From NCBI GenBank assembly GCA_963668315.1, contig OY764216.1:2240001-2304000 (forward strand): 64,000 nt of DNA, in the 5' to 3' direction. The position numbers and the translations under genes are program-made. Origin of the DNA: Spirochaetia bacterium. GTDB lineage: Bacteria > Spirochaetota > Spirochaetia > DSM-2461. Below are positions 41,017 through 48,708 of this stretch, one piece after another. A model generated the notes under the pieces. That model was not told the origin of the DNA, ran no database searches, and saw nothing but the letters and a program-made list of their open reading frames with translations. Position 1 is the first letter of the stretch, and each line of letters begins with the position of its first letter.

Positions 41017-41416
41017 TGCACCCCAGTACATGCACCTGAGTTTTCCCCGGTTTATTGAATACCCGGGCGATGACGTAGTCGTCAGGGCCCAGACTCTCCC
41101 CGCAGTAGGGACAGATTCTTCCCTCCCCGCCGCGGCCGCCCGAATCGGGATGGCCGTGGTAGCATCGGGGACAGCCGAATATATGCATGAGGCCGTCAGG
41201 CTTTCCCGGGTACAGGTGGGAGTGAACCCTTTCCCCCCGATTCAGCCACTCTCCGCAGAGAGGACAGCGGGTCCCGAAGCTTTTTGCCGGCGTCTCCTCT
41301 TCTTCCCTTATAATCCACTCATCCCGGGAAGGTTTCTCCTTTTTACCGGTGAGAAATATCAGCAGGAGGAGAAGGATTATAAGGAGTAAGGCAATGACGG
41401 CTATTTCCGTGACCAT
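40994..41416 (-). CDS. membrane-anchored protein with two tandem Zn-ribbon-like units
   Basis: N-terminal TM; CPLC...HIFGCPRC and CPYC...HVLGCTIC. Confidence 0.7.
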   Translation of the reverse strand: MVTEIAVIALLLIILLLLLIFLTGKKEKPSRDEWIIREEEETPAKSFGTRCPLCGEWLNRGERVHSHLYPGKPDGLMHIFGCPRCYHGHPDSGGRGGEGRICPYCGESLGPDDYVIARVFNKPGKTQVHVLGCTICRERR

Positions 41417-42636
41417 GGATATATCTTCAACGTGGGAATAAGAACCCGGACAAGGGCGGTTCCGGCCGATCCATGGGCCAGAATAAGGGGCAGATAGAAA
41501 AACAGGACGGCCCCGTTGTCCTGGACGACTCCCGGCAGCAGTTTGAAGAGCAGGGAGAAAAGGGCCAGAAAAGCCTGCATATTCCAGAAGCGCTCGTAGT
41601 TACGGGGAGCGTCAGCGCTTTTCCCGCAGCGAAGGGCCGGTACGAGCGCCCCCAGCAGGACGGGACAGGTTATCAGAGCATTCAGATTCCAATGGGTGAC
41701 GTCATGGTCGGTAAAAAACATCATGAAACAGAGGAAAACACCGGGAAGGGCCGTCAGAAGAACGGAAAAGACACGCCAGAGGGCGGTAAGCTTCCCGTAT
41801 GGTATCACTCTGAAGCCAAGGGTGATAAAAAACAGGAGCATTCCCCAGAGAAAAGCGGCTCCCCACCAGGGAAACGGGATTTCCGGGATGTAGGGCGTCA
41901 AACCCTCCTGGTAGATATTTGTTTTCTTCACCAGAGGAGTTCCGTCCGGTCTGATATGGGTCTGAACCATCTTTTCCAGTTCCCGGGGGAGAAACAAAGC
42001 TTCCCACTGACCTATTTTTTTATCGACCGAAGGACCCTGGAGATAATTCAGCAGGAGATAGGGCCAGAAAGACCGGATAAAGCGGTTTGACTGGTCCCTG
42101 AAGGTCAAAGCATAGTCGCCGCAGGCATCGTGAAGCTCGCCGTTCATGGCATGGTCAAGGGTGTCCCTGATCCGGGTGGAGCAGTTGTCTTCGTAATGGT
42201 GGTAGAGATAGGTGCGGTTCTCCGGTTTTATGCCTTCCTCCAGTTCCTCGTAAACAGCCTGCTTCTCTCCGGCGGTCAGGTTCAGATCGTAGATAGCCAC
42301 TTTGCGGTTGAACCAGGTGAGATAGCGGAGGTAGGGTTCTGTCCTCGACCTCACCTTGAGATAGTAGAGACGGCCCATGGCGAAATTCCGGTAGAAATGG
42401 TCCGCCTCAAAGGAAAAATTCCCGAAATCATAGAAATAGGACCAGTTCATTTTTTTATTTTCCACAATCAGACCAATATGACCCCACCATACATAAAGAG
42501 GCATGCCCGGTCCTATGACCATAAGGGAAACGGAGAGGTCATCGCCGACTCCGAAGCTTCGGGTACCAGCCCAGAGAGGGGACAGGGAAAGGAATAATAT
42601 AAGAATAAGTAAAAGGGTCTTCTGTTTCAGGGACAT
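41401..42636 (-). CDS. DUF4105 / Lnb-like membrane protein
   Basis: Signal peptide, WWGHIG, Y.Y...DNCSTRIRD, FLP; C-terminal TM bundle. Confidence 0.8.
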   Translation of the reverse strand: MSLKQKTLLLILILFLSLSPLWAGTRSFGVGDDLSVSLMVIGPGMPLYVWWGHIGLIVENKKMNWSYFYDFGNFSFEADHFYRNFAMGRLYYLKVRSRTEPYLRYLTWFNRKVAIYDLNLTAGEKQAVYEELEEGIKPENRTYLYHHYEDNCSTRIRDTLDHAMNGELHDACGDYALTFRDQSNRFIRSFWPYLLLNYLQGPSVDKKIGQWEALFLPRELEKMVQTHIRPDGTPLVKKTNIYQEGLTPYIPEIPFPWWGAAFLWGMLLFFITLGFRVIPYGKLTALWRVFSVLLTALPGVFLCFMMFFTDHDVTHWNLNALITCPVLLGALVPALRCGKSADAPRNYERFWNMQAFLALFSLLFKLLPGVVQDNGAVLFFYLPLILAHGSAGTALVRVLIPTLKIYPWSRK

Positions 42637-42762: not shown

Positions 42763-42791
42763 CTCGACTTCTTAATCGAAAGTGCTATAAT
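42763..42791 (+). promoter_or_regulatory. promoter of the histone-fold gene
   Basis: Extended -10 TGCTATAAT (42783-42791), weak -35 CTCGAC/TCGACT, A-rich upstream region. Confidence 0.7.
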
Positions 42792-42848
42792 CTATGAAAG
42801 AACTCTCGGAAGGGACGTTCTCAACTGCAAGACAAGGAGATTAATATT

Positions 42849-43034
42849 ATGGCCGAAAAAGAAACATTGGTTATTGCATCAAAAGTAAAAAACTACATTA
42901 AGGCTACCGGCGACATGAAATGTTCAGCCAAAGTTATCGAAGTCCTTTCTGATAAAATCAGAGAAATGTGCGATGAAGCTATTGAGGCTGCTCAGAAAGC
43001 TAAAAGAAAAACTGTACAGGAGAAGGATTTCTAA
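42849..43034 (+). CDS. bacterial histone-fold protein (short, truncated alpha3 type)
   Basis: MAEKETLVIASKVKNYIK...EAIEAAQKAKRKTVQEKDF: LVxxSKVK start, long alpha2, RKTV-x3-D loop; AAGGAG RBS; own promoter and terminator. Confidence 0.88.
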   Translation: MAEKETLVIASKVKNYIKATGDMKCSAKVIEVLSDKIREMCDEAIEAAQKAKRKTVQEKDF

Positions 43035-43053: not shown

Positions 43054-43082
43054 AAAAAAGCTGCCCCGGGGCAGCTTTTTTT
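43054..43082. terminator. bidirectional intrinsic terminator
   Basis: Perfect palindrome AAAAAAGCTGCCCCGGGGCAGCTTTTTT between convergent genes. Confidence 0.88.
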
Positions 43083-43084
43083 AT

Positions 43085-43651
43085 TTAATCCCAGCCAATG
43101 TCCAGCTTGATGAGATTTACTTCGGTATCCTTGCGGATTTCCTCGGGTATATCCATATCAAGAAGCATCAGCATGGTTTCCCTGGCTTCCTCCCTGTTAT
43201 CGAATTCCCTGTGGACATAGGAGAGGGCATAGAGGGTCCGGTAGTCGTAGGGACTCATTTCCAGGGCCCGCTTCAGCATGTCATAGCCCATCTGTCTCTC
43301 TCCCTTGACGCCGAAGAGGACTCCCAGATTTCTCAGAACCGAGGGATTCTCCGGTGCCAGTTTCTGGGCTTCCCTGAAATAGCGGTAGGCCGCCGCATAA
43401 TCCTTCCGCCGGAAATAGGCACACCCAAGGGCTTCCCAGGCACGGGGATTATCCTTTATCCTGCCCGTGTAGTACTCGAGGGCTCTGATGGCTTTGATAT
43501 TTTCGCCCGTCTCCGTATAGGCAATACCTATGTTGCAGATGGCTTCTATGTCATCCGGATTCAGGGCCAGGATCTGCTCCAGAATCTCTCTCGCTTTGTC
43601 ATATTTACCCGACTGCATGTAGGTTTCGGCGTCTTTAATGGATATCATCAT
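43085..43651 (-). CDS. tetratricopeptide repeat protein
   Basis: About 5 TPR units (AICNIGIAY, AWEALGCAY, VLRNLGVLF). Confidence 0.88.
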   Translation of the reverse strand: MMISIKDAETYMQSGKYDKAREILEQILALNPDDIEAICNIGIAYTETGENIKAIRALEYYTGRIKDNPRAWEALGCAYFRRKDYAAAYRYFREAQKLAPENPSVLRNLGVLFGVKGERQMGYDMLKRALEMSPYDYRTLYALSYVHREFDNREEARETMLMLLDMDIPEEIRKDTEVNLIKLDIGWD

Positions 43652-48405: not shown

Positions 48406-48708
48406 ATGGCTAGCAAAAAAATGACCAAAGCGGAGATTATCGAAAATATCTTTGAGGATACCAATATATCCAGAAAAGATATTCATGAGATAATCGACAA
48501 TTTCTTTTCCGAAGTTAAAACCGCTTTAACCGATGATCGTATCGTGGAGTTGAGAGGCTTTGGCACATTTGAGATTCGGACAAGAAAGGGCAGGGAAAAG
48601 GCGAGAAATCCTAAAACGGGTGAAATCGTTCCTGTCAATACCCATGGTGTCACTGTCTTCCGTCCCGGTAAGGAACTGAAGCAGATGGCCTGGGATCTCA
48701 GAAATTAA
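48406..48708 (+). CDS. HU/IHF-family DNA-binding protein (Hbb-like)
   Basis: VELRGFGTF, ARNPKTGE, FRPGKELK. Confidence 0.95.
   Translation: MASKKMTKAEIIENIFEDTNISRKDIHEIIDNFFSEVKTALTDDRIVELRGFGTFEIRTRKGREKARNPKTGEIVPVNTHGVTVFRPGKELKQMAWDLRN

Follow-up and report, generated by a model that had tools for sequence, protein, structure and literature searches.

A well-kept HBb-type histone in a spirochaete, for which sequence favours a dimer over a face-to-face tetramer

Bacterial-dimer histones form a class that rests on sequence clustering and on the lack of a confident higher multimer (PMC11390915). The one member with experiments in the literature searched is HBb (Bd0055) of Bdellovibrio bacteriovorus, which binds unspecifically across the genome and whose deletion failed; it contacts only the DNA backbone, at the minor groove, bends the DNA by 84 degrees over 36 bp, and in simulation makes its ten main contacts through N22, R57, S9, T53, T8, S24, K10, K12, K52 and K16 (PMC11317129). 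This bending mode (PMC11317129) is disputed by a second study of Bd0055, in which an end-on sheath round straight DNA was proposed, the sprocket arginine was noted as missing, and A48, at the site of the nucleosomal histidine, was mutated to histidine (PMC10627809). Face-to-face histones carry an arginine six residues and an asparagine two residues before the clamp arginine, and the bacterial dimers are without both (PMC11390915). The tetramer interface of HLp from Leptospira perolatii is formed at the same residue positions, by R49 and N53 (PMC12701072). For HTkC of Thermococcus kodakarensis, the R45A mutant is dimeric on elution and resembles HBb in its behaviour, and the face-to-face arginine is described as bridging to the C-terminal carboxyl of the partner, for which an exact chain end is needed (bioRxiv 10.64898/2025.12.06.692711). 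Bacterial dimers have been found in "Spirochaetota (class Spirochaetia)" (Schwab 2024, PMC11390915), and Spirochaetia is listed among the classes with histone homologues (PMC11317129), so that the suggestion of the initial annotation that histone chromatin may be new for this lineage is not supported. The terms Spirochaet, Oceanispirochaeta and Sediminispirochaeta are absent from the three text supplement files of PMC11390915 (text, as distinct from figures), and the literature searched, which covered few subscription papers, yielded no experimental study of a histone from the class.

The gene described here is a well-kept HBb-type bacterial histone in a class that has already been named in print. 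It lies in a window of 64,000 nucleotides (contig OY764216.1 of assembly GCA_963668315.1, positions 2,240,001 to 2,304,000), within a genome that was assembled as a single contig and is 97% complete. The features of the locus, numbered from the first letter of the window, are as follows.

42849..43034, forward strand: alpha3-truncated histone gene of the bacterial-dimer (HBb/Bd0055) type, 61 aa, ATG to TAA; assigned by PF00808, by 8fvx (E 1.6e-9) and by the structure model
42764..42769, forward strand: -35-like hexamer TCGACT from the promoter scan, invariant in five of five aligned loci
42783..42791, forward strand: extended -10 element TGCTATAAT, invariant in five of five aligned loci; TGnTATAAT occurs at most 120 nt upstream of only 57 of 4,498 predicted genes
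42799..42821, forward strand: putative weak hairpin where the predicted leader begins, a minor feature, in the same place in five of five loci
42834..42839, forward strand: Shine-Dalgarno AAGGAG, 9 nt before the histone ATG
43054..43082, no strand assigned: predicted intrinsic terminator flanked on either side by runs of A and T (palindrome 43054-43081), likely shared with the convergent TPR gene
41401..42636, reverse strand: divergent neighbour, Lnb-like membrane protein gene (Pfam Lnb_N and 5TMH_Lnb; NF051878 below cut-off)
43085..43651, reverse strand: convergent neighbour, TPR protein gene (profile match), nearby in 8 of 20 family loci
48406..48708, forward strand: HU/IHF-family gene, 5.4 kb from the histone gene and co-occurring with it

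The translation of the 61-residue frame is as initially annotated, R53, K54, T55, V56, D60 and the terminal F61 included, and the protein has a computed mass of 6.9 kDa, a pI of 8.6 and a net charge of only +2, with 13 basic and 11 acidic residues. Upstream of the ATG the frame stays open for no more than 17 codons, a stretch that contains the promoter-leader. The transcription signals that had been annotated as the gene's own (extended -10, AAGGAG and palindromic terminator) are all in place. TCGACT and the -10 hexamer are separated by a spacer of 16 nt and form the best of six promoter-like sites between 42000 and 44000, with 10 of 12 matches, where shuffled sequences give 2.5 sites; both boxes are invariant and the spacer variable between the window and four related loci (L022-L024 and L034). 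The terminator, between the histone gene and the TPR gene, is a perfect 28-nt palindrome with a 12-bp stem (-15.8 kcal/mol). Among 101 distinct homologous genes, an SD-like motif is found 5' of 97, and a hairpin with z below -2 against mononucleotide shuffles 3' of 73. Given the divergent upstream neighbour and the terminator before the convergent TPR gene, the layout implies a monocistronic histone unit, and the single-gene unit of the initial annotation is to be read in that sense. The leader hairpin keeps its place but not its sequence in the five related loci and could protect the 5' end; as it beats shuffles in only one of the five, a role as regulatory RNA was rejected.

A short open reading frame in bacteria, where histones are patchy, might be spurious, a contaminant or a recent passenger gene, but the chance of this is close to nil. 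Synteny and selection refute it: in the nearest named loci, titled Spirochaetaceae, Spirochaetales and Oceanispirochaeta, the histone is 92-93% identical, 9 to 10 neighbours are shared and the neighbour proteins are 41 to 94% identical. The ratio pN/pS against 19 family homologues is 0.10-0.21 (uncorrected, with synonymous sites near saturation in distant pairs), and by this measure the gene is under purifying selection. The single-contig genome and the retention of the gene throughout the family likewise speak against a passenger. In a relative from a second study (X5/X6, one sample), one contig covers the entire 3 kb histone locus, which, together with the pN/pS values, makes an assembly artefact unlikely. 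X1 is near-identical and may be the source of the window's own DNA. Among the runs listed as holding the locus, six from two studies, there was none of RNA; the four runs compared are contig sets, and X4 does not cover the gene, from which nothing follows.

The codon use of the gene, which had been described as AT-rich and ribosomal-like, proved to be so when scored as the log ratio of codon frequencies in 24 ribosomal-protein genes plus EF-Tu to those in the genome, for which genes were called in the analysis, rplB was identified by Pfam as the anchor of the ribosomal cluster, and the remaining members of that cluster were named by eye from their translations. The histone scores 0.221 over 58 codons, fifth of 4,472 genes outside the ribosomal cluster, and stands above both the ribosomal leave-one-out median (0.147) and HU (0.049, top 2.1%). 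Such a score is reached by 0.16% of 4,418 length-matched windows and by 2 of 202 short genes, the histone included. GC3 at synonymous codons is 0.33, as compared with a genome median of 0.63 and 0.42 for the ribosomal set. Promoter, ribosome-binding site and codons, and these only, suggest that the histone is abundant.

The search for a histone fold proposed in the initial annotation gave a PF00808 match of 26.4 bits against a cut-off of 21.4. The best matches to sequences of known structure are HBb/Bd0055 (8fvx, E 1.6e-9), HLp (2.6e-9) and HTkC (0.0015), the first two of which bear out the likeness to Bd0055 and to the Leptospira histone that had been proposed; archaeal nucleosomal histones match at E 0.11 or worse. 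The alignment with HBb is ungapped, with 26 of 56 residues identical (46%, counted on the printed alignment), whereas a four-residue gap is needed against archaeal histone A and its nucleosomal kin. In an AlphaFold2 model built on 63 aligned rows (pLDDT 87), residues 2-21 and 27-50 are helical and 58-60 form a single turn, in agreement with the truncated alpha3 that had been annotated. Foldseek ranks HBb 1-5, HLp 6-7 and HTkC 8-9, with E of 0.001 or less in one of at least 500 matches; few low E values are unsurprising for so small a domain. The one-turn alpha3 and the shortened alpha2 are those by which alpha3 histones are defined, with 3-4 residues left of alpha3 and 4-5 residues fewer in alpha2 (Schwab 2024), and the nearest representatives at 50% identity in the profile search are HBb-like and zinc-finger-fused forms.

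The motif R53-K54-T55...D60 contains the RD clamp R53-D60, alpha1 carries the lysines K12, K14 and K18, and K12, K14, K54 and T55 are invariant in 63 aligned homologues. The match to NF043032, the archaeal nucleosomal histones, falls below its cut-off (28.7 bits against 50), the nucleosomal histidine site is occupied by K50, and a three-turn alpha3 is absent, all of which agrees with the earlier view that no archaeal-type hypernucleosome would be formed. A ZZ histone or a DUF1931 pseudodimer was rejected, since the protein has 61 residues, a single fold and no N-terminal zinc finger. A second histone was not found in the 97% complete genome by searches with the protein, PF00808, PF09123 and the alignment.

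It is considered probable that the protein is a single-fold histone of the HBb/Bd0055 type that forms a handshake homodimer, likely binds and bends DNA non-specifically, and is probably abundant beside HU. The initial annotation had left the choice between a face-to-face tetramer and a DNA-bending dimer, and sequence favours the dimer: the two diagnostic positions are A47 for the arginine (profile 48) and A51 for the asparagine (profile 52). Among 93 protein matches, 90 have the motif, and these have arginine at -6 in one, asparagine at -2 in none and lysine at +1 in all 90. Pooling this set with 20 of the 27 relatives' loci, 80 of the 504 named loci and 30 of the 96 genomes, three sequences without the motif being dropped, gave 173 distinct sequences; the 137 with a cysteine in loop 1 again have asparagine at -2 in none and lysine at +1 in all, with arginine at -6 in one and lysine there in 20. 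Two HLp-like control sequences have arginine at -6 and asparagine at -2. Given that HTkC has the RKT motif and a glutamate for the asparagine, yet is a tetramer, it is the arginine that carries the argument for a dimer. A face-to-face tetramer ring that wraps about 60 bp, like those of Leptospira HLp and Thermococcus HTkC, is accordingly thought decidedly improbable, given alanine both at position 47, where loss of the arginine turns HTkC into a dimer, and at position 51, the site of the conserved asparagine. Nevertheless, the chain ends at D60-F61-stop, exactly one residue past the clamp aspartate as the salt bridge requires (an end found in 65 of the 137), the HLp match is nearly as strong as the HBb match, the N-terminal half resembles HLp and HBb equally, and the bridge that D49 of HBb makes to the clamp arginine is missing with A51. 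Furthermore, face-to-face histones are common in Spirochaetota according to PMC11390915; in a phylum sample with matches in 96 of 401 genomes, one family accounts for 77 of these, out of 80 genomes searched, with HLp-like sequences at all 13 loci fetched from it, as compared with 0 of 52 in another family. The HLp-like sequences, however, are separated by a long branch (1.72, support 99) from the loop-1-cysteine clade in a quick tree of 62 columns with 47 of 95 forks unresolved.

Multimer modelling, which had also been proposed, returned a handshake dimer and speaks neither for nor against tetramer contacts. Four copies scored 0.81, against 0.02 for the best of three controls, with pLDDT of at least 85 and runs that agree in at least 82% of contacts; in the calibration, which the four-copy job does not resemble, the mark was passed for 20 of 30 pairs and 1 of 23 single chains of solved structure, and likeness to the solved HBb may be the source of the pass. 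The confident contacts are those of the handshake pair (17 with 44/45, 36-36, 37-37 and 24 with 55/56) and lie only between copies 3 and 4, while 47, 50-52 and 59 are unlisted, which means uncertain in a score that takes the best placement of a partner only. In the same prediction, C41 has its best contacts with V13, Y16, I17, T20 and L33 of the partner. A disulfide or redox switch between C25 and C41 found no support, as the 25 best predicted pairs include no Cys-Cys contact and HBb has an equivalent of C41.

In the preferred reading, the two long helices and the one-turn alpha3 are predicted to form an antiparallel handshake homodimer in which the L1 and L2 loops pair (K24 against T55/V56). 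By analogy with HBb, the dimer would hold DNA by its phosphate backbone, at minor grooves, with the ends of alpha1 (S11, K12, K14 and K18) and the L1-L2 loop residues K24, S26, K54, T55 and K59, and it would bend a stretch of about 36 bp while remaining a dimer, because K50 stands at the site of the nucleosomal histidine and A47 at that of the face-to-face arginine. On the ungapped alignment, the ten HBb contacts correspond, in the order given above, to K24, K59, S11, T55, A10, S26, K12, K14, K54 and K18, of which seven are identical, two are lysines (for N22 and R57) and one is lost (T8 to A10); a binding mode shared with HBb would follow by analogy. The same dimer could act mainly as an end-on nucleohistone sheath that coats straight DNA at high density, a mode that is compatible with the handshake dimer and would depend on concentration. 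The L1-L2 residues of Bd0055 are kept (S26, A27, K54 and T55), the short N-terminus and the acidic face of alpha2 (E31, D35, E39, D42, E43 and E46) resemble features described in PMC10627809, and the codon use suggests the high copy number that would be required. As the main mode it is nonetheless unlikely: bending and a different crystal packing were found for Bd0055 (PMC11317129), the in vivo state is left open in PMC10627809, and the sprocket position, Asn in Bd0055, is K24 here and lysine in 127 of the 137 clade members, a basic residue that would be expected to favour bending in the conventional minor-groove mode. That the protein is instead an accessory, non-architectural histone-fold protein, such as a condition-specific regulator or a partner, with HU as the main packager, is very improbable. 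HU-family genes are present in all 36 genomes tested, 31 with a histone and 5 without, many sister families have no histone, and the net charge is low; against this, the codon score is above that of HU and of most ribosomal genes, the near-consensus promoter is conserved, the DNA-contact residues are kept, and no partner histone-fold gene was found in the genome.

The survey of homologues across Spirochaetia that the initial annotation had called for found a histone in 81 of 401 genomes of the class, including all 28 of the family; two other families have it in 6 of 6 and in 8 of 9 genomes, and in three further families it was not found (0 of 49, 0 of 37 and 0 of 13 genomes). Among closer relatives, 27 of 41 genomes have a match; every family member has one (24 of 24), whereas genomes from other families contribute 2 of 16. 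Among the named loci, Myxococcota-type records show 59-64% identity. Given that most families of the class are without a match, the histone is not a general spirochaete requirement. The Lnb-like gene adjoins the histone at all 20 family loci compared and at 25 of the 80 loci fetched from 504 named ones, as would be expected if the family inherits the gene in place; the neighbour is taken as a positional marker only. The distance of 5.4 kb to the HU gene holds as annotated, but a meaning for its closeness is not supported: in the 24 family genomes, HU lies within 6 kb in 4, at 35 kb or more on the same contig in 8 and on another contig, where no distance can be read, in 12, and a functional link through gene order was rejected. 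The Hbb of the initial annotation refers to an HU/IHF protein of Borrelia and has nothing to do with the histone HBb. A link to smc as in Leptospira was also rejected, with an SMC-like gene about 1.66 Mb from the histone.

Several further observations were made on these genomes. The SMC-like protein (G000:C1:3940861-3943632, reverse strand) has 923 residues with SMC_N at both ends, and SMC_hinge (PF06470) has no match anywhere in the window's genome, where a short or divergent hinge is possible. A 281-residue protein (G000:C1:4679496-4680341, reverse strand) has a C-terminal HU/IHF domain and an N-terminal part without assignment; similar frames of 280-315 codons occur in many family genomes. 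One genome of the class holds a second histone copy split over two frames (G540:C60:4135-4316), with an intact copy on another contig, and in a genome of the family a frame of 322 codons contains a weak second match (G013:C1:704293-704424). In the quick tree, histones of Myxococcota and Deltaproteobacteria (L076, L077, L079, L087-L089, L096, L099 and L100; 59-65% identical) group together; L096 falls among them although titled Spirochaetaceae, which suggests a binning error or a transfer. The loop-1 cysteine (K-C-S; 42873-42875 region, C25 codon 42921-42923) marks 137 of the 173 distinct sequences, and the site is threonine in HBb, HLp and the Myxococcota forms. Thr23 of HBb contacts the DNA backbone, and oxidation of the cysteine could in principle affect binding. 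The top matches of the profile search (P0094-P0117 and others) are tandem double HBb-type histones with two folds in 120-270 residues, some with an N-terminal cysteine-rich, zinc-finger-like region; two that were scanned against NCBIfam gave only histone matches below cut-off, and the main text of PMC11390915 does not describe alpha3 doublets as doublet, tandem or pseudodimer.

Within the dimer clade, L097 (4001-4183) has arginine at the tetramer site in a chain that ends right after the clamp aspartate, and L009, L010, L037, L039, L044, L065, L092, L093, L106 and L108 have lysine there with the same exact end. Of the 21 sequences with a basic residue at -6, 16 have the exact end, as do 49 of the other 116, the rows being kin to one another; the basic sequences sit in about seven places on the quick tree (five exact, one mixed and one extended), too few to call an association. 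L097 and the lysine-bearing histones are candidates for a regained tetramer. A wider and unlikely possibility is that, in several free-living families, chromatin is organised mainly by these spirochaete histones, with HU in second place, and that they form a natural dimer/tetramer series in which the alanine state would be a bending dimer and the relatives with lysine or arginine and an exact end (16 of 137) would have independently regained a wrapping tetramer. If true, a single clade would allow the single-residue origin model of the bacterial dimer histones to be tested on natural variants.

A second, distant family that has the histone gene in every genome tested, at one place and with codon use like that of the most highly expressed genes, is a good independent test case, with the sprocket lysine and the exact D-F end as the informative differences from HBb. 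Across the phylum, two ways of organising chromatin would then be present: in Leptospira a tetramer wraps the DNA and HU is absent, and in part of Spirochaetia a dimer that likely bends DNA occurs together with HU. Published surveys already imply such a division, so that what is gained is an example mapped in more detail rather than a discovery.

In comparison with known systems, the spirochaete histone shares the RxTxxxxD clamp and the RKT motif with the archaeal nucleosomal histones of the HMfB type, but its alpha2 is four residues shorter, it has no three-turn alpha3, and K50 stands for H49. It resembles HTkC (PDB 9F2C) in the alpha3 fold, the RKT motif and a basic sprocket residue (R22 there, K24 here), at 29% identity; whereas wild-type HTkC is a tetramer through R45, the natural alanine at this site matches the dimeric R45A mutant. 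HLp (PDB 9QT0-9QT2; PMC12701072) and LA_2458 of L. interrogans are bacterial face-to-face histones. HLp comes from the same phylum and resembles the spirochaete protein in its near-identical N-terminal strand and alpha1 start, in the D-F end and in being the single histone of its genome, with 39% identity in the structural alignment; it nevertheless has R49, S52 and N53, and forms a stable tetramer that wraps about 60 bp (PMC12701072), where the spirochaete histone has A47, K50 and A51. Furthermore, in these two Leptospira species HU is reported absent and the histone gene lies beside smc, whereas here HU is present and the neighbour is Lnb-like. HBb (PDB 8FVX, 8CMP, 8FW7, 9EZZ and 9F0E), the type member of the bacterial-dimer alpha3 histones, differs in having N22 for K24, threonine for C25, T8 and D49 where the spirochaete histone has alanine, and a short tail where the latter ends at D+1; B. 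bacteriovorus also has a second histone, Bd3044, of which no counterpart was found in the spirochaete genome. The two nonetheless have in common a short alpha2, a one-turn alpha3, the RD clamp and RKT motif, no tetramer arginine, asparagine or histidine, a buried cysteine (C41 here, C39 in HBb) and co-occurrence with HU.
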